Shown: positions 1 to 51,120 of the stretch, in pieces
Layout of the letters: every line of letters begins with the position of its first letter
Numbering within the stretch: position 1 is the first letter of the stretch
Assembly (NCBI GenBank): GCA_018826075.1
Contig: JAHKAJ010000018.1
Span: forward strand, 1-51,742
Origin: Candidatus Omnitrophota bacterium
GTDB lineage: Bacteria; Omnitrophota; Gorgyraeia; Duberdicusellales; 4484-171
Reading direction: 5' to 3'
Length of the DNA stretch: 51,742 nucleotides
The notes under the pieces: generated by a model
Told to the model about the DNA's origin: nothing
Seen by the model: only the letters and a program-made list of their open reading frames with translations
The model's database searches: none
Translations under genes and position numbers: made by a program

Positions 1-7
1 AGTAGAT

Positions 8-703
8 ATGCTGCCAGAGGCCTATATACCTACCAAGCCTATACGTGATGCAAGATATCTAATGAGATATCGACAAAACTTAATCTATCTGCGTACAAGC
101 ATTAAGAATAGAATACATTCAATAATTGATAATGCCGGTATCCAACAATCATTCTCAGACCTTTTCGGTAAAGGAGGTAGGCAATTCCTTATTCAATTAG
201 ACTTAAGGCAACCTTATAAATCTATAATTGATAATTACCTGTCTGTAATAGCTGACTTAACTAACCGGATAAATAAAGTCGATAGCCAATTACGCCAATC
301 TTTAAGAAAAGATAAACAAGTCCAGCTTTTAACTACTATTCCCGGCATAGGTGTTATTACCGCTCATGTAATTTTAGCCGAAACCGGAGATATCAATAGA
401 TTCCCTAATCATCATAAGTTTGCCAGATACATTGGTATAGTTCCTTCTCTGCACCAGAGCGGGCAGGTATTACATAGCGGCCATATAACTAAACAAGGTA
501 ATAAATATCTAAGAACTGCCTTTGTTGAATCAGCTCAAACAGCTATCCGTAGAGATCCTTATTTAGCGGTTAAGTTTAATAAAATAAAAGCTAAGAAAGG
601 CTATGGTGTGGCAATAGTTGCCATAGGGCATAAATTAGCTAAATCAGCATATGTGGTTTTAAAGAATAAAGAAGAATATAGGTATCGTTCTCTTAATGGG
701 TAA
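8..703 (+). CDS. IS110 family recombinase/transposase, 5'-truncated by the window edge
   Basis: TIPGIG, QSG catalytic-serine motif, GNKYLR. 23 differences in 231 aa from the copy at 2667 (manual count). Confidence 0.93.
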   Translation: MLPEAYIPTKPIRDARYLMRYRQNLIYLRTSIKNRIHSIIDNAGIQQSFSDLFGKGGRQFLIQLDLRQPYKSIIDNYLSVIADLTNRINKVDSQLRQSLRKDKQVQLLTTIPGIGVITAHVILAETGDINRFPNHHKFARYIGIVPSLHQSGQVLHSGHITKQGNKYLRTAFVESAQTAIRRDPYLAVKFNKIKAKKGYGVAIVAIGHKLAKSAYVVLKNKEEYRYRSLNG

Positions 704-830
704 GGCCGTTAACAAGTCTGGCTCAATTTAGAAGCCGTTGGATTGATTGGCATACCCTGTCATGATCATTATAGTGCGCATAAGTTCGCCTTGTGAGCGG
801 AATATAGCGCGAATAGATGAATTGGCTGAT
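698..830 (+). ncRNA. Bridge RNA/seekRNA of IS copy 1
   Basis: GGGTA/TACCC-closed stem with TAACAAGTC (710-718) and TGGATTG (739-745) matching the attC target. Second stem carries ATAGATG (813-819) matching the element's own end. Boundaries approximate. Confidence 0.8.
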
Positions 831-898
831 TTTATTTAGTTGTATTAATGCTTAGGAGGTTTTTATGTGATTCTGCTTGACAGGTGTTTTCATAGATG

Positions 899-909
899 AT
901 TTGTTATGC
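899..909 (-). other. attC inverse core (R'') and spacer of the Fic cassette, interrupted by IS copy 1
   Basis: Minus strand reads TAG-CATAAC AAAT CA. The fic stop codon overlaps GCATAAC, the usual position for a cassette ORF stop. Confidence 0.8.
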
Positions 910-2255
910 TATTTTTTAAAAAGCTCTTTTATCTTCTCGGTGGCAAAATAGCATGCCTTTTTCCGATTTCTTTTTAAAAAAACAAAATTTTGCTCTAGTA
1001 AATTTTGCAAATCTCTAATAGCTGTACTTTTAGAAATCTGATAATGATTCATGTGCATTGTTGGGGTTGTATACTCATCTTCATTTTCGTAATAATATTG
1101 TAAAAGTTGTATCTGACGCTCATTCAAATCGTAGTTGGATTTTGCTTTCATATTCATTCTTTTGTTTCTATAAGATACTTTTTGTATGTATCTCTCAAAA
1201 TCCTTCATAGCTAATTTAACCTTTCTGACATTATAGTCAATAAAATAAGTCAAATCTAAATCATCCTGTTCGCTATATACATAAGATTTAGCGTATTGAG
1301 AAGGAGATTTTCTAATCATTGTTGATATAGGAAGATATGAAAACGCCCAATAACCTTTACTTAATAGGTACCAGTAAAATATTAAACGAGCTAATCTTCC
1401 ATTGCCATCAGTAAATGGATGTAAGTATCCAACCCAAAAGTGTAACATAATTGCTTTGATTACTGGGTGAAGGAAATGACCTTCTGAACTGTCGTTAGCA
1501 AAATCTATAAAGCGTTTAATTTCGCTTTCCACAAAGGTAATTTTTGGAGGCGTGTGGTATGTAAATTGCCCTAAGGTATCTTCAACTACAATATTATCGC
1601 TATCTTTTCTAAAACAGAATAATTCTTTTTTCGAAACAGTATTTTTTACAATCATTGAGTGTAGTTCAAACAATAGATCTATGCCTAATGGTTTATTTTT
1701 GAAATCTTCTTTAATAGCTTTCATGGAGTTGTAATTATTTAAAATCATGTGTTCGTTTTCCGTATGTGGTTTTCTTCCCTCAGAAAGAAATTTCTTGGCG
1801 AGCTTACGCGTTGTGCTCGCGCCTTCGAGTTGTGATGAAGCGATAGCTTCTTCAATTATTCCACGGGAAATAAATTTCATTTCATTTTTTTCATCTATAT
1901 CAGAACCGCTTAAAGATAAATGTCCTCCTGTATTTAAGTCTATTCTGTGAATGAATTCCTCCAGTTTTGGTAAATGCGCATACCAACGAAAAAACTTACC
2001 GTCTTCATTCATTATTACAGTGGGAGATGATTTAAGCCATCGAGAGAATTTAATTGCTGCCCATATTTTTTCGATGGGAGCCTTAGAGGAAAACTTTTTG
2101 TATTTTATTTTATCCCAATACAAGTAAGAAGGGTGCGATGTTTCAAATAGAATTTGATCAAAATTATTTTTTTCTTTTTCAAACATGTAATCAAAAATTT
2201 CTTTTTGATCAAATATTGAAATATCAGGTTTTTCTAAAATGTATGGTTGAGACAT
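909..2255 (-). CDS. Fic family protein (class II-like) with C-terminal HTH
   Basis: HPFTDGNGRLAR catalytic motif, N-terminal SSQLEG inhibitory motif, C-terminal ISKSTAIRDLQNL HTH. Confidence 0.92.
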   Translation of the reverse strand: MSQPYILEKPDISIFDQKEIFDYMFEKEKNNFDQILFETSHPSYLYWDKIKYKKFSSKAPIEKIWAAIKFSRWLKSSPTVIMNEDGKFFRWYAHLPKLEEFIHRIDLNTGGHLSLSGSDIDEKNEMKFISRGIIEEAIASSQLEGASTTRKLAKKFLSEGRKPHTENEHMILNNYNSMKAIKEDFKNKPLGIDLLFELHSMIVKNTVSKKELFCFRKDSDNIVVEDTLGQFTYHTPPKITFVESEIKRFIDFANDSSEGHFLHPVIKAIMLHFWVGYLHPFTDGNGRLARLIFYWYLLSKGYWAFSYLPISTMIRKSPSQYAKSYVYSEQDDLDLTYFIDYNVRKVKLAMKDFERYIQKVSYRNKRMNMKAKSNYDLNERQIQLLQYYYENEDEYTTPTMHMNHYQISKSTAIRDLQNLLEQNFVFLKRNRKKACYFATEKIKELFKK

Positions 2256-2269
2256 AGCTTATGTGATTT

Positions 2270-2445
2270 TAGGTGTCATTGTTGTTCATTTGACACCTAA
2301 ATAATAACATATAGACATTTTTTTGTCAAGATGAGTTTCTTTGACACCTATATGACACTTATACGAGACTCATTTCGGGGGGCGATAATAGAGATTTCGT
2401 ATTATAGGTGTCATTGATATCTATATGACACCTATTTGACACCTA
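2270..2445. repeat. Cluster of TGACACCTA 9-mers in direct and inverted orientation
   Basis: Inverted copies 2270-2278 and 2405-2413. Direct copies at 2291, 2342, 2426 and 2437. Variants at 2353 and 2415. Confidence 0.85.
2301..2329 (-). promoter_or_regulatory. sigma70 promoter of fic
   Basis: Minus strand TTGACA-17 bp-TATTAT with TGn extension. Confidence 0.75.
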
Positions 2446-2452
2446 TTTTCGT

Positions 2453-2523
2453 GTATAACATAGAAATCAGCGGCTGGACGAACCCGCGAACCTAGAGAGC
2501 AGCAAATACAGTCCGCTGGATTG
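2453..2523 (-). other. attC site (L'', L', R'); its R'' is displaced to 3868-3878 by IS copy 2
   Basis: Reconstructed 82-bp minus-strand site: GTCTAAC aaagc AATCCAGCGGACTG...CAGCCGCTGATT tctat GTTATAC. Contains the two unpaired bases (extra C and A on the top strand) typical of attC. Confidence 0.9.
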
Positions 2524-2666
2524 ATAGTATGAAAACGCCTCCTGTCAGCGGGTCGTGCCAGACCTCGTAGAACGAGGTACAATATTTACGAGCTCGTAAG
2601 GACAGGCCTTACGGCTCACTAGGTTTAACCTAAACGGCCTCTTCGCCGCTAAACCAGGAGGTGTAT

Positions 2667-3680
2667 ATGCATTACATTGGTGTTGACCAGCACAAGAAAT
2701 ACAGCTACGTAGTTGTAAAAGATCAACGAGGCACTAAGCTTAATCAAGTAAAATTATACCACGCAGATAAGGAGAATATGAAGGATTATTTTAAGGCTAT
2801 ACCGGAAGGCTCAATTGTAGCCCTGGAAACCTGCGGTTTTGACCATTGGCTGACCGATATGTTTGGAGAGCTGGGCCTATCGGTGAAGCTGTCTCATACT
2901 GCTAAGACTAAGGCTATTGCCGAGGAGAGAATCAAAACCGACAAGATAAGCGCTTCTGTATTAGCTGATTTACTTAGAGTAGACATGCTGCCAGAGGCAT
3001 ATGTACCTACTAAGCCTATACGTGATGCAAGATACCTAATGAGATACAGACAAAACTTAATCTATTTACGTACCAGTATTAAGAATAGGGTACACTCAAT
3101 ACTAGATAATTCCGGCATCCAACAATCTTTTAGCGATCTATTCGGTAAACAAGGTAAGCAATTCCTTATTCAGTTAGATCTAAAACAACCTTATAAGTCT
3201 ATAATTGATAATTACCTGTCGGTAATAGATGATTTAACCGGCAGAATTAATAAAGTCGACAACCAATTACGTCAGAAACTAAAGAAGGATAAACAAGCAC
3301 AGCTCTTAACTACTATTCCAGGAATCGGAGTTATTAGTGCTCATGTGATTCTTTCCGAAGTAGGCGATATTAACCGATTTCCTAATCACCATAAGTTTGC
3401 CAGGTATATCGGCATAGTGCCTTCCTTGCATCAGAGCGGTCAGATACTCTACCATGGCCATATAACCAAGCAAGGCAACAAGTACCTAAGAACTGCTTTT
3501 GTTGAATCTGCTCAAACCGCAATAAGAAGAGACCCTTATTTAGCGGTTAAGTTTAATAAGATTAAAGCCAAAAAAGGCTATGGAGTAGCTATTGTGGCTA
3601 TAGGGCATAAGCTGGCTAAATCAGCTTTTGTTGTTCTAAAGAAGCAATGTGAGTATAGATATCGTTCTCTTAATGGGTAA
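2667..3680 (+). CDS. IS110 family recombinase (RuvC-like N-terminal domain plus Tnp domain)
   Basis: YIGVDQHK, VALET, KTDKISA, QSG. Start moved to ATG 2667, 5 nt after AGGAGG. Confidence 0.95.
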   Translation: MHYIGVDQHKKYSYVVVKDQRGTKLNQVKLYHADKENMKDYFKAIPEGSIVALETCGFDHWLTDMFGELGLSVKLSHTAKTKAIAEERIKTDKISASVLADLLRVDMLPEAYVPTKPIRDARYLMRYRQNLIYLRTSIKNRVHSILDNSGIQQSFSDLFGKQGKQFLIQLDLKQPYKSIIDNYLSVIDDLTGRINKVDNQLRQKLKKDKQAQLLTTIPGIGVISAHVILSEVGDINRFPNHHKFARYIGIVPSLHQSGQILYHGHITKQGNKYLRTAFVESAQTAIRRDPYLAVKFNKIKAKKGYGVAIVAIGHKLAKSAFVVLKKQCEYRYRSLNG

Positions 3681-3805
3681 GGCTGTTAACAAAGCTGGCT
3701 AGATATAAGCCGTTGGATTGATTGGCATACCCGGTCATGATCATTATAGTGCGCATAAGTCCGCTCTTTACGCGGAATATAGCGCGAATAGATGAATTGG
3801 CTAAT
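3675..3805 (+). ncRNA. Bridge RNA/seekRNA of IS copy 2
   Basis: TAACAAAGC (3687-3695) is the reverse complement of the right target flank 3867-3875. TGGATTG (3714-3720) equals the left flank 2517-2523. ATAGATG (3788-3794) equals the donor end. Confidence 0.85.
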
Positions 3806-3871
3806 TTATTATTTAATTCAGAAGGAGGTTTTTATGTGACTCTGCTTGACAAGCGTTTTCATAGATGCTTT

Positions 3872-3906
3872 GTTAGACATTTTTTATTCATTTTATTATG
3901 TCTAAC
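3872..3906 (-). other. Minimal ORF-less cassette GTTAGAC-21 nt-GTCTAAC
   Basis: Perfectly complementary core and inverse-core pair 21 nt apart; the inverse core belongs to the IS-split attC. Confidence 0.6.
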
Positions 3907-3971
3907 AATTAATATCCGACCATTTTGATTTATGGGTTAGAGGTAAGATAGGGCCGTTTGCCCTTAAAATT

Positions 3972-4000
3972 AATATACCTCTAAAAGTGAATAAATTCAA
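3972..4000 (-). promoter_or_regulatory. Pc-like sigma70 promoter facing the cassette array
   Basis: Minus strand TTGAAT-17-TATATT; near-identical copy at 51018-51046. Confidence 0.65.
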
Positions 4001-4159
4001 GCCTTTTAAGTTTTTTTGAAAAATTCTGAAAGAATTTTACTTTCCAAAACGTCTGCATATATGGAGATAGCCATAAAAAAGGATGATCCGGACATCCTAA
4101 AAGAGGTTGAGAAACCGGCCGCAGTATGGTATCTTATTAGCGGTACAAAGGATTGAATC

Positions 4160-4915
4160 ATGAAGCAAGCTAAAGCCCAAGTCAAAGAAGCGGTTAAAAT
4201 AAAGAGTAATATTTACCTTCTGAAAATCCATTCGCCTTATTTGGCTAAAAAATCACAACCCGGCCAATTTCTCCATTTGAAAATAAGTTCGGTAATCCTG
4301 CGGCGGCCTTTTAGTATTCACAAGGTAGAAGGCAATACAGTTTTTATTCTGTTTCGGGTTCGCGGCCGGGGCACTAAAGCTCTTTCGCAGATTAAAAAGG
4401 GAAAAGTTTTAGACATCATCGGTCCCCTGGGTAAAGGGTTTGATTTCAAAAATAACCGGGAAAATATTTTAATAGCCGGAGGGATCGGAGTCGCTCCTTT
4501 AGTTTTTCTGGCCCAAAAATTAAAAGGAACTAAAAATTTAGTTTTGTTAGGCGCTAAAAATAAATCCGAAGTTATTTGCGAGAACGAATTTAAGAAATTA
4601 GGTTTTGCGGTAAAATTAGCCACTGACGACGGCTCGCGCGGTTACAAAGGTACAGCAATCAGTTTGTTAAAACATATTCTACGGACGACGGACGACGGAC
4701 GACGGACGACGATTTACGCTTGTGGCCCCAAAGAGATGTTTTTAGAAATAAGTAAAGTTTTAAAAAAGTACCCGCGGATTAACTGCCAGGTTTCCTTTGA
4801 GCAGTTTATGGGCTGCGGCTTAGGCATTTGCTGTGCCTGTGTGATTGAAACCAAGAATGGATATCAGAAAGTCTGTAAAGATGGCCCAGTATTTGACATT
4901 AAAGATATATGGTAA
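4160..4915 (+). CDS. pyrK: Dihydroorotate dehydrogenase electron transfer subunit
   Basis: LRRPFS, AGGIG, CGP, MGCGLGICCAC...VCKDGPVF. Confidence 0.93.
   Translation: MKQAKAQVKEAVKIKSNIYLLKIHSPYLAKKSQPGQFLHLKISSVILRRPFSIHKVEGNTVFILFRVRGRGTKALSQIKKGKVLDIIGPLGKGFDFKNNRENILIAGGIGVAPLVFLAQKLKGTKNLVLLGAKNKSEVICENEFKKLGFAVKLATDDGSRGYKGTAISLLKHILRTTDDGRRTTIYACGPKEMFLEISKVLKKYPRINCQVSFEQFMGCGLGICCACVIETKNGYQKVCKDGPVFDIKDIW
4681..4712 (+). repeat. Tandem heptamer (ACGGACG)x4 inside pyrK
   Basis: acggacg acggacg acggacg acggacg acga, encoding RTTDDGRRTT. Confidence 0.9.
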
Positions 4916-4960
4916 AAGGCACTAAACTATTGTTTGAAAGACGAGCCAAAATAGAATAGA

Positions 4961-5875
4961 ATGGGGAAGATGAGTTTGAAAGTAAAATTGGGCAAATTGG
5001 AACTTTCCAGCCCCCTGATTTCGGCTTCCGGGACTTTTGGTTTTGGCGAAGAGTTAAGGGGGTTGGCTGATTTTAAAGCCATTGGGGCAATTACGACTAA
5101 AACTCTAACTCTCTCTCCCCGAAAGGGTAACCCACCGCCACGCATCTATGAAACTGAACAGGGGGTAGTCAATTCGATCGGCTTAGAGAATCCAGGGGTA
5201 GATGTTTTTATCAAGGATAAACTGCCTTTAATCCGCAAACTCCCCACTAAATGCCTTGTTAGCGTAGGCGGTTTTTCTCGAGAGGAATACCAGGAGTGCT
5301 TAACTAAGCTGGATAAGCAAAAGGGTGTGGATGGTTTTGAAGTAAACCTTTCCTGTCCTAACTTACGGTTAAAAAAATTAGTTTCTCAAAGTGCCCAGGC
5401 AACTTATAAACTGACCAAGGCTTTACGGAAAGCGACCAGAAAGACTTTGATCGTAAAAATTACCCCTGAGGTGACTGATGTCGCGGAGGTGGCTAAAGCC
5501 GCTGAGCGTGCTGGAGCCGATGGTATTGCCTTGGTGAATACTTTTTTTTCGATGGCCATCAACATTGATACTAAAAAGCCTTATTTGGGTAATATCTACG
5601 GTGGTTATTCAGGCCGGGCAATCAAGCCAATGAGTCTTTATCGAGTCTGGAAGGTAGCTGGATCAGTGCGGATACCAGTAATCGGCGGCGGTGGAATAGA
5701 AACAGCTCAGGATGTAATAGAATTTATTTTAGCCGGGGCAACTGCAGTGAGTCTGGGAACCATAAACTTGGTTGAACCCAATGCAGCCGCAAAAATCCTT
5801 AAAGGGATTAAGAGTTATTTAACCAGGAAAAAGATAAAAGATATAAAAAGCTTAAGAGGAGGCTTGATTGTCTAA
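4961..5875 (+). CDS. pyrD: Dihydroorotate dehydrogenase family 1B
   Basis: ASGTFG, NSIGLENPG, NLSCPN, GGYSG. Confidence 0.95.
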   Translation: MGKMSLKVKLGKLELSSPLISASGTFGFGEELRGLADFKAIGAITTKTLTLSPRKGNPPPRIYETEQGVVNSIGLENPGVDVFIKDKLPLIRKLPTKCLVSVGGFSREEYQECLTKLDKQKGVDGFEVNLSCPNLRLKKLVSQSAQATYKLTKALRKATRKTLIVKITPEVTDVAEVAKAAERAGADGIALVNTFFSMAINIDTKKPYLGNIYGGYSGRAIKPMSLYRVWKVAGSVRIPVIGGGGIETAQDVIEFILAGATAVSLGTINLVEPNAAAKILKGIKSYLTRKKIKDIKSLRGGLIV

Positions 5876-6527
5876 ACCCTGGAATAAACTCATTGTCGCC
5901 TTGGACGTAACTTCGGAGAAGAAGTTTAAAAAGATAGTGGCCCAACTTTCGCCGAAAGTTAAATGCTTCAAGATCGGTTTAATCGCCTACACTCGGTTTG
6001 GACCTAAGATCATCCGGGAGGTTAAAAGAAGAGGCGGTAAAGTATTTTTGGATTTTAAACTTTATGATATCCCTAACACCATGGTAGAAACCGCTAAGGC
6101 CTTTGTTGATTTGGGAGTTTGGGCTTTTACCGTGCATCTAAAGGCCGGAGAAGCGGCCTTAAAATATTTAAAGCGAGAAGTCAGAAAGCAAGCTAAGCAC
6201 AAGAAGAAAAAGGCGCCTTTAATTATCGGAGTGACTGAATTAACTTCTAAAAAGGCATCCTTAAGCCAGGTTTTAAAATTAGCTAAGGTAGCCAAACGAT
6301 CCGGAGTAGATGGGGTAGTTTGTAGCGTCTGGGAAGCTAAGAAAATTAAACAAAAGTTCGGCTTAAAAACCATAACCCCGGGGATAAGGGTAAGGAAAAC
6401 TGGGGATGATCAGAGAAGAGTGGCTACCGTTAAGGAAGCTTTGCAGAATAAAGTTGATTACTTTGTAGTTGGCCGGCCAATCGTAGCCAAGAAAAACTAT
6501 TTGCAAGCAGCCAGAGAGCTTATATAA
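5868..6527 (+). CDS. pyrF: Orotidine-5'-phosphate decarboxylase
   Basis: DFKLYDIPNT, TPGIR, VVGRPI. Confidence 0.95.
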   Translation: MSKPWNKLIVALDVTSEKKFKKIVAQLSPKVKCFKIGLIAYTRFGPKIIREVKRRGGKVFLDFKLYDIPNTMVETAKAFVDLGVWAFTVHLKAGEAALKYLKREVRKQAKHKKKKAPLIIGVTELTSKKASLSQVLKLAKVAKRSGVDGVVCSVWEAKKIKQKFGLKTITPGIRVRKTGDDQRRVATVKEALQNKVDYFVVGRPIVAKKNYLQAARELI

Positions 6528-50263: not shown

Positions 50264-50318
50264 ATCTAACACAAAAATCAGCCGCCTCTGCGAAGCCCGC
50301 CAGATTGCTTTGTTAGAT
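50264..50318 (-). other. Orphan attC-like site
   Basis: Minus strand ATCTAAC aaagc AATCTGGC...GCTGATT tttgt GTTAGAT. Cores are perfectly complementary and the layout matches the array attC; the inner stem is imperfect. Confidence 0.65.
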
Positions 50319-50454
50319 GATTTTATCAGAAAGTGTTACCTATCTACTTGGGTGATTCACTACTCTCTTATAACCACTCCTTCCTACTTAAATAATCTCA
50401 AGCCGGCTTTAACAAAAGTAAAATAGTAAAATAAGAATTGTTCCTTATTGCTTA

Positions 50455-51000
50455 TCACAAGCTACTAACCAAATATTCGGTTGAATCTGTGAAGCCGGCA
50501 GATAAAGGGGCAAAAATGCTCTGGTTATTCAACTTATTAACTATTGTGTTAGGCAAGCCGCGTAGGCCTATGTATACACCCGGGCCAAGATTATGGCGGC
50601 CATTTGGCCAATAATCATAATCGTAGCCGTCACCCCAAGGGCAAGCTGCTGGATATGTATCCAGATAAGGTCCGTCCCAAGAAGCATTTACCATATCTTT
50701 CCAGTTTGAAGGATGGGTGGTGGCAGCTGAGGTAGATTCCATACCACTTCCATTTATAGCGCTATAAGGTAAGGGTTTTACAAAGCCAGGGTCAACGTCT
50801 TTAACAACATCGGGCGGAAAAAAACCCATATCGGCATAATAGGTAAGGGTCGCACTACCCATAGCTTTTACATCGCCGATTACTTCGCTTATCTTCGCCT
50901 TTTCAATAGCCTTAAAAGCATTGGGAGCAATGATTGCTGCTAGAATAGCAATGATAGCAATGACTACAATCAATTCGATTAAAGTAAATGATTTTTTCAT
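50455..51000 (-). CDS. Type IV pilin / GspG-like pseudopilin
   Basis: S|FTLIELIVVIAIIAILAA; WDGPY; PWG. Start set at ATG 51000 after GAGGG. Confidence 0.88.
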   Translation of the reverse strand: MKKSFTLIELIVVIAIIAILAAIIAPNAFKAIEKAKISEVIGDVKAMGSATLTYYADMGFFPPDVVKDVDPGFVKPLPYSAINGSGMESTSAATTHPSNWKDMVNASWDGPYLDTYPAACPWGDGYDYDYWPNGRHNLGPGVYIGLRGLPNTIVNKLNNQSIFAPLSAGFTDSTEYLVSSL

Positions 51001-51017
51001 TTTTTCCCTCAAATGTT

Positions 51018-51046
51018 AATATACTCCTAAAAGTCAATAAATTCAA
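51018..51046 (-). promoter_or_regulatory. sigma70 promoter of the pilin gene
   Basis: Minus strand TTGAAT-17-TATATT. Confidence 0.65.
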
Positions 51047-51120
51047 GCCGGAAAAGTATTATTTGAAATCAGAGTGATTATGGAATACAATGAGCAATTA
51101 ACATAATCAGGGTAAAAGAT

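Follow-up and report, generated by a model that had tools for sequence, protein, structure and literature searches.

IS1111-type insertion sequences very probably occupy the attC sites of an integron-type array in an uncultured Omnitrophota bacterium

RESULTS

Two insertion sequences and a cassette gene at a contig end

The window analyzed here is positions 1 to 51,742 (51,742 nucleotides [nt]) of contig JAHKAJ010000018.1 from a Candidatus Omnitrophota bacterium, an uncultured organism of groundwater; its assembly is a metagenome bin of 36 contigs and ~1.5 Mb, and numbers prefixed with C below refer to those contigs unless another genome is named. Positions 1 to 4108 hold two insertion sequences (ISs), the cassette gene fic that lies between them, the pieces of two attC sites, and a stretch that resembles an integron platform, after which pyrK (4160-4915) follows. 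The features, with their coordinates and strands, are as follows.

1-898, plus strand: right two-thirds of IS copy 1; the contig begins inside the element, with a transposase fragment at 2-703 and the 3' noncoding region at 704-898
899-909, minus strand: start of attC2, the fic cassette's own attC, by direct reading; spacer ATTT at 899-902, then GTTATGC at 903-909, the complement of which is R'' GCATAAC
909-2255, minus strand: fic open reading frame (ORF) of cassette 2, 448 amino acids (aa); Pfam PF02661 (Fic), 56.4 bits against a cutoff of 24
2256-2452, minus strand: 5' region of the fic cassette, with ~8 copies of TGACACCTA / TAGGTGTCA from a repeat search
2453-2523, minus strand: larger part of attC1, with R' (complement of 2453-2459), L', the variable loop, and L'' with a bulged T at ~2512 and a G at 2518/2519
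2524-3867, plus strand: IS copy 2, complete, 1344 bp, IS1111 type by Pfam, NCBIfam, and subterminal repeats
3681-3867, plus strand: 3' noncoding region of IS copy 2, with a seek/bridge RNA predicted from folds, alignments, and guide/target covariation
3868-3878, minus strand: small part of attC1, by direct reading; spacer CTTT at 3868-3871, then GTTAGAC at 3872-3878, the complement of which is R'' GTCTAAC
3879-3905, minus strand: body of cassette 1, without an ORF, resembling the 5' leader of the first cassette in G145, a genome of the same genus
3900-3921, minus strand: attI-type junction, ...GGTCGGATATTAATT followed by GTTAGAC, from an alignment of three platforms
3907-4108, minus strand: integron platform without intI, from homology to stretches of C16 and C36

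The R'' of attC2 shares one base with the fic stop codon, and cassette 1 as a whole, with the IS removed, runs from 3905 to 2459 (~103 nt). The larger part of attC1 terminates in ...GGATTG at 2523, and the left flank of IS copy 2 reads ...GCTGGATTG. An earlier note on this DNA had placed IS copy 1 at the identical point in the next attC and had described both elements as antisense to the array, and we found the same: each right IS end reads ...TTTTCATAGATG, after which come a 4-nt spacer and GTTAnnn (899-909 in the case of copy 1), and the transposase genes lie on the plus strand and fic lies on the minus strand.

Removal of IS copy 2 rejoins an attC site

It had further been claimed that removal of 2524-3867 restores an 82-bp minus-strand attC with both extrahelical bases. 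Scripted removal joined 2453-2523 to 3868-3878 and gave 82 nt, so that the claim proved exact in coordinates and length; because a TG is common to the left flank and the right IS end, excision of 2522-3865 is equivalent. Sites of the attC type end in imperfect inverted core sites, R'' (RYYYAAC) and R' (GTTRRRY), and Bouvier et al. and MacDonald et al. are said to have described a folded bottom strand in which one arm of the L''/L' helix carries two extrahelical bases. The rejoined site folded at -12.5 kcal/mol (DNA parameters; z = -2.4 against 300 shuffles), and its minimum-energy fold contained a 7-position R box with one mismatch (6 of 7 positions paired), a partly open central spacer, an L box, and the two extrahelical bases that had been claimed, namely, single-base bulges of T and G, 6 nt apart on the same arm, beside R''. 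The role of the folded bottom strand falls to the plus strand, and the attC top strand is therefore the minus strand, which is also the strand of fic. The R'' of attC1, GTCTAAC, matches RYYYAAC.

Thirteen sites of the same design are present in the host assembly, each reading xxxTAAC-ACAAA-AATCA, a variable loop, and then GGTCnGnTGGATTG-nnTT-GTTAnnn. Counted over their alignment, the two-bulge structure was 80.6% paired, compared to 19 to 42% when the partners were slid, and in the variable helix 5 of 7 pairs changed on both sides, with a covariation score that none of 500 shuffles reached. The TAAC and GTTA portions pair in most intact attC sites of the family. The next ORFs begin 10 to 30 nt past R', on the strand opposite to the one displayed, with a ribosome binding site and ATG at C34, C13, C15, C33, and C18. 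The first cassette beside the integrase gene intI on C16 ends in the same attC motif, after the first ORF that follows intI.

Two models were used to score these sites. The first, R1, is a covariance model trained only on the 13 attC sites of the host genome; the larger part of attC1, which belonged to that training set, scored 56.9 bits. A search of the host genome with R1 returned no site beyond the 13 training sites, a count that covers one sequence type. In G145, R1 found 12 sites at E <= 6.5e-4, and 8 of these form one array (C5:39206-44575 of that genome) beside an intI gene (C5:36422-37381), with the strand orientation that cassettes diverging from intI should have. The transposase query had no match in G145 at E <= 1e-40, and in all eight array sites the sequence G(G/C)AT(T/C)G, a 4-nt spacer, and GTTA is uninterrupted; these are natural "empty sites." The second model, a profile hidden Markov model of 74 positions, was built solely from these eight sites beside intI. 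With this profile, the rejoined window site scored 46.8 bits (positions 2 to 74) and was the best of nine excision variants; the eight excisions shifted by 3 or 6 nt scored 25.8 to 39.8 bits, the unrejoined left half scored 31.9 bits (positions 2 to 66), and the best of 20 shuffles scored 2.7 bits. Applied to the whole host genome, the profile recovered the same 13 sites, with matches that halted at position 66 in IS-split sites (6 of 6) and reached positions 69 to 74 in intact ones.

A search of positions 1 to 6000 of the window against Rfam at E <= 10 gave nothing meaningful, neither an attC nor a bridge RNA; IS605-orfB-I ranked first, with 18.5 bits (gathering threshold, 94). G145 also has a second cluster of four attC sites on another contig, far from intI (G145:C13:153593-159134, locus L048), which has the appearance of an ordinary cluster of attC sites lacking an integrase (CALIN) and holds no IS.

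One insertion point and a predicted guide RNA

All junctions of the IS family in the host genome fell at the same point of attC (11 of 11), close to R'' at the 5' end, with the IS in antisense orientation to the cassettes. The five right junctions (C16:899, window 898, window 3867, C36:129, and C36:33389) all read nnTT-GTTAnnn, and the six left junctions (window 2524, C4, C13, C34, C15, and C18) all read ...G(G/A)ATTG; the 12-mer that located the right junctions also has one unrelated match, on C5. Whole relatives on metagenome contigs, with 81 to 86% aa identity, showed the identical insertion point with both flanks in 4 of 4 cases. In the 1.5-Mb assembly, 6 of the 13 attC sites are occupied by an IS, and at least 9 contig ends fall within the IS family.

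Folds and alignments of the 3' noncoding region gave two stem/internal-loop domains. In domain 1, positions 3687-3695 (TAACAAAGC) are complementary to the plus-strand target (G, CTTT, GTTA), and positions 3714-3720 would pair with the other target strand, since TGGATTG is identical to the left flank; the two target matches overlap at the insertion point. In domain 2, positions 3788-3794 (ATAGATG) are identical to the right IS end. Guide and target were compared in the seven elements for which both are known (copy 1, copy 2, the C16 element, L036, L037, L038, and L039). The first spacer base pairs with the guide in all seven, as C/G in copy 2, C16, and L036 and as A/U in copy 1, L037, L038, and L039; at the second spacer base there were five Watson-Crick pairs, one G-T pair, and one mismatch. 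The 7-nt copy of the right IS end was found in each of the seven elements and covaries once, in L038 (A to G in both). The left-IS-end match in domain 2 is weak and was exact in 3 of 5 elements.

Anatomy and relatives of the insertion sequences

IS copies 1 and 2 share 82% nucleotide identity, measured over copy 2 positions 455 to 1344. The copy 2 transposase is listed as 339 aa, from GTG at 2661 to an end at 3680; ATG at 2667, behind AGGAGG, is the likelier start. The protein matched Pfam PF01548 (DEDD_Tnp_IS110; 52 bits) and PF02371 (Transposase_20; 92.5 bits), as well as NCBIfam NF033542, "IS110 family RNA-guided transposase" (237 bits; cutoff, 140). The element has the subterminal repeat ATGAAAACGC / GCGTTTTCAT, and all five complete elements have subterminal inverted repeats of 10 to 12 bp, made up of ATGAAAAC plus 2 to 4 variable bases with compensatory changes. 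Giving the TG to the left end makes the two terminal extensions exactly 7 and 3 bp long. Noncoding DNA amounts to 187 nt downstream of the transposase gene (tnp), compared to 137 to 143 nt upstream, and the target matches lie in the downstream part. The joint of right to left end makes a promoter, TTGAC(A/G)-17-TAnnAT, in all five elements (TTGACA-17-TAGTAT in copy 2). Passages of PMC11187229 give subterminal inverted repeats of 11 to 13 bp and extensions of 7 bp on the left and 3 bp on the right for the IS1111 family, together with noncoding DNA that is longer downstream of tnp and contains the seekRNA, and they describe a circle-junction promoter of the same kind in ISEc11.

A search of the genome contig collection found no close transposase relatives, and the best plasmid-borne relative was 39.7% identical. 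An element on a Klebsiella plasmid (27% identity) was considered as an attC-homing reference and was rejected, as it lies between blaCTX-M-14 and IS903B and not in an attC. In G060, another genome of the phylum, a relative of 46% identity (L024, contig C14 of that genome; ~1290-1400 and 2640-2690) is flanked by a different repeat, GGTACCAGTTCTAAAAGTGCC-like, and from these flanks the element seems to home to another repeat family.

A platform without integrase

The earlier note had reported no integrase, and upstream of the array only ~250 bp before pyrK, where intI would normally lie. The length was right, as the gap from the array to pyrK is 253 bp (3907-4159), but the gap is not empty, since it holds an attI/promoter platform at 3907-4108. 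The absence of integrase likewise held for the window, which has no intI, but not for the genome: the single intI of the assembly lies on C16 (ORF 1438-2745) and scored 423.9 bits as an ORF and 410.8 bits as DNA against TIGR02249 (cutoff, 265). That cutoff was passed in 15 of 301 sampled genomes of the phylum, host included, and in none of 14 control genomes.

The part of C16 that runs from the first cassette to the intI start (C16:1217-1434) has 83% identity over 221 nt to positions 3889-4108 of the window, and C36:32310-32512 has 73% identity over 220 nt to the window platform. From this homology, we conclude that the window retains an integron platform without the integrase. On the cassette side, the homology of the three platforms ends exactly at ...ATATTAAYT, followed by GTTA, which is where an attI crossover would be expected; the core ATATTAATT-GTTAGAT also adjoins intI in G145. 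On the other side, the homology ends within a few bases of the start position of the C16 intI. C36 holds a second platform without intI; at the place of the intI start it has ATG TTT and, soon after, a stop codon. In all three platforms (C16 with intI; the window and C36 without), an IS sits in the attC of the first cassette. A scan for promoters and terminators gave a promoter-like site that points toward the cassettes (4000 to 3972; TTGAAT-17-TATATT) and, on the minus strand at the edge of the platform, a hairpin resembling a terminator (4098 to 4080). Publications on Omnitrophota integrons and on CALIN with attI in trans, in the passages available, contained no orphan attI platforms.

Several smaller observations concern the same elements. 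In the 50 nt between the platform and pyrK there is a plus-strand promoter-like site with an extended -10 (4107-4135). The C16 and C36 platforms with an IS in their first attC are at locus L011 (G000:C16), 900-1434, and at G000:C36:32310-33389, respectively. The C16 IntI is 435 aa long, with ~105 extra N-terminal residues, which match the start of the IntI model (positions 11 to 80) a second time, though weakly (E = 5.4e-4). Among the other IntI matches of the phylum, open frames of 403 to 475 aa recur, and one is 323 aa; together, these lengths and the second match suggest that the IntI N-terminal domain is duplicated in the clade.

DISCUSSION

Interpretation, points against it, and alternatives

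Taken together, the sequence evidence makes it very probable that window positions 1 to 4108 are the promoter-proximal end of a chromosomal, minus-strand, integron-type array whose attC sites were invaded by an RNA-guided IS1111-type family. The sequences themselves show the anatomy, the homology, the target specificity, and the covariation of guide and target. In the mechanism that we propose, an RNA from the 3' noncoding region of the IS would be produced, would home to attC, and would direct insertion. One segment of this RNA would pair with the G-spacer-GTTA strand on the R'' side, and a second segment would pair with the opposite strand at TGGATTG on the L'' side, the position of the bulged G included; the DEDD transposase would then integrate a circular copy of the IS at the shared TG, in an orientation that is always opposite to that of the cassettes. 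Split attC sites would presumably be unusable by IntI until the IS departs. In the functional ideas of the earlier note, the cassettes may stay immobile as long as the IS has not been excised precisely, or may move through recombination between the IS ends. The window platform appears to have lost its intI, and the IntI of C16 could act in trans.

A number of results weigh against this interpretation or temper it. The R' of attC1, GTTATAC, deviates from GTTRRRY at one position, R-box pairing over the attC family is just 62.5%, and both attC models, R1 and the G145 profile, derive from one genus. The 3' noncoding region alone folds no better than shuffles (z = -1.0), and only 5 of 39 predicted pairs covary among seven sequences; the predicted RNA is supported by guide logic and not by folding energy. 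The transposase is only 23 to 24% identical to the named IS1111 members IS5075, IS4321, and ISEc11, and the nearest transposases of the phylum (46% in G060 and 45% in G269, among 300 sampled genomes) occupy other targets, for which reason they do not help to date the attC habit. The C16 intI is assigned to the host organism by binning, within a metagenome bin. Finally, the metagenome contigs described below contained no empty site (2523-3868), IS circle, or IS-fic circle, although assembled contigs drop rare forms, and this result therefore carries no information on excision.

Three other explanations of the locus were weighed. The repeats might be palindromes of the repetitive extragenic palindromic (REP) or a similar kind that the ISs target, and the "array" might be ordinary genes between such repeats. 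IS1111/IS110 elements often target REP-type palindromes, ISPa11 being an example in passages of PMC11187229, and the host sites are scattered in ones and twos over 10 contigs with imperfect R-box pairing. This explanation is nevertheless extremely improbable, given that G145 has eight co-oriented sites in an array that starts at an integron integrase with an attI-type junction, that the first site on C16 follows the first ORF after intI, and that RYYYAAC/GTTRRRY-type ends and two bulged bases characterize the sites, with an ORF that starts just past R'. A composite transposon made up of the two ISs and fic, which would have brought the gene to this place and in which the attC halves would be passengers or accidental flanks and not parts of an in situ array, is very improbable, too. 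Two ISs in the same direction do bracket one toxin-type gene with its own 200-bp regulatory region. However, the two copies are only 82% identical, IS1111-type elements are described in passages of PMC11187229 as moving as single circles and not as composites, each IS occupies a separate attC at the usual insertion point, removal of copy 2 restores a full site from its two flanks, and the assembled Logan contigs contained no IS-fic joint.

The remaining explanation is an artifact of assembly or binning, in which repeated ISs and attC sites from several strains were joined into a chimera. The contig starts within an IS, and five other contigs break in the same IS. Junctions were checked in Logan assembled contigs from four groundwater metagenome runs, and these independent contigs crossed them without differences: the left junction in X1 (record 4, 1871-2795); the right junction and platform in X1 (record 7), X3 (record 15), and X6 (record 24), over 3773-4086/4150 and from three studies; and the passage from platform into pyrK in X1 and X3, which span 4061-4400. 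Odd joints do occur among the Logan contigs (907 to 3903, 907 to 3965, and 3938 to 4058), and they fit the paralogous platforms on C16 and C36; the first two are the spurious joints that related platforms can give. With the junctions crossed in this way, we regard a chimera as extremely improbable as well.

Returning to the reading of the locus as an invaded integron array, we also considered a more far-reaching version of it. Here, attC homing would have been gained by guide retuning, independently of the proteobacterial IS1111-attC elements; the two orphan platforms, beside pyrK and on C36, would be working docking and expression sites served in trans by the C16 IntI; and the ISs in the first attC would be reversible locks on cassette exchange. 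The idea of an independent origin comes from the nearest phylum relatives being in other targets and from the guides of the copies matching their own attC spacers. We put this scenario forward as speculative and rather doubtful.

Relation to known systems and significance

Homing to attC has been known among IS1111-type elements since 2008-2009 (Tetu & Holmes 2008; Post & Hall 2009, both via passages of PMC3001079 and PMC11187229), and for that reason the arrangement described here is not a new kind of element. According to these passages, ISPa21 and ISPst6 enter attC close to its 5' end, in antisense orientation to the cassettes (PMC3001079); in ISKpn4, ISPst6, and ISPa25, a seekRNA located downstream of tnp matches both target strands, and the two matches overlap; and the guide matches of ISEc11, ISPa11, and ISKpn4 overlap at the insertion point (PMC11187229). 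An excerpt of PMC11089894 names IS1111-group transposases as common invaders of environmental cassettes. The window element resembles the IS1111-attC group, which Tetu & Holmes reportedly placed in a monophyletic subgroup, in its DEDD transposase, fixed antisense insertion near R'', subterminal repeats, and downstream guide region with two opposite-strand matches that overlap at the insertion point. It differs in its host, an uncultured groundwater member of the Omnitrophota rather than a proteobacterium, and in a second conserved stem-loop that carries the copy of the right IS end. Group IIC-attC introns likewise enter attC near its 5' end, in antisense orientation to the array, but they are retroelements with a ribozyme and a reverse transcriptase, not a DEDD transposase with a guide RNA (according to passages of PMC3001079).

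The subterminal repeats set the window element apart from the IS110 type, which is without them. Its predicted RNA has features in common with the bridge RNA that Durrant et al. in 2024 and Hiraizumi et al. in 2024 reportedly described for IS621/IS110, in that there are two internal-loop domains, the first with the target guides and the second with a 7-nt copy of the right IS end, and a shared TG dinucleotide. It differs in that it is predicted 3' of the transposase gene and not 5' and in that the left-IS-end match is weak. As to the array, the CALIN of Cury et al. in 2016 is said to be a cluster of at least two attC sites without a nearby integron integrase. The earlier note had called the array CALIN-type, and this is apt: there are two attC sites at 899-3878, the cassettes point in one direction, and the only intI of the assembly is on another contig. 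The locus departs from a CALIN in that both attC sites are interrupted and in that an attI-type junction and a platform homologous to that of a complete integron are kept. Particular to this case are the host, how far the transposase is from its named relatives, the large share of occupied attC sites, the covariation of guide and spacer, and the orphan attI platforms.

Integron arrays that hold an attC-seeking IS can escape standard attC searches, and such an IS can also break assemblies. With 6 of 13 attC sites occupied and at least 9 contig ends in the IS, censuses of cassettes and integrons in uncultured bacteria may therefore undercount. The covariation of guide and spacer, seen at the first base in all seven comparisons, provides independent comparative support for the seekRNA model and shows how finely these ISs track variants of a structured recombination site. 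Orphan attI platforms beside housekeeping genes in a genome with one IntI suggest that platforms can be duplicated, or stripped of their integrase, and yet kept.

Gene neighborhood and the fic cassette

In G145, pyrK directly follows a pabB/pabC fusion gene, with a gap of 14 nt; from this we conclude that the pyr operon of the window has been severed from its former upstream gene. The host orthologue, pabBC, lies at C18:934-2322, and C18 begins with an attC remainder joined to a left IS end. That remainder (C18:126-192) is, by synteny, probably the left flank of IS copy 1. The likely order would then be pabBC, one more cassette, attC2 with IS copy 1, fic, attC1 with IS copy 2, the platform, and pyrK, an order that is drawn from one related genome (G145) and not from reads.

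The 200 bp upstream of fic include several copies of TGACACCTA / TAGGTGTCA that are paired as palindromes of 9 to 11 bp, with arms 10 to 12 nt apart. These repeats are possibly operators. The Fic protein weakly resembles Sta1-type regulators at its C terminus (E = 6e-4), and, from its layout, the cassette looks like an autoregulated, self-promoted one.

A relic of a single cassette lies near the right end of the window (50264-51068), between era and a nitroreductase-like gene. Its attC (50264-50320; 40.3 bits with R1) is shortened, with the L' arm largely missing. A prepilin-type ORF follows on the minus strand (50455-51012), and a similar pilin-like cassette comes after an IS end at C36:229-840. 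The last 67 nt of the relic (51002-51068) are 80.6% identical to the promoter block of the platform.

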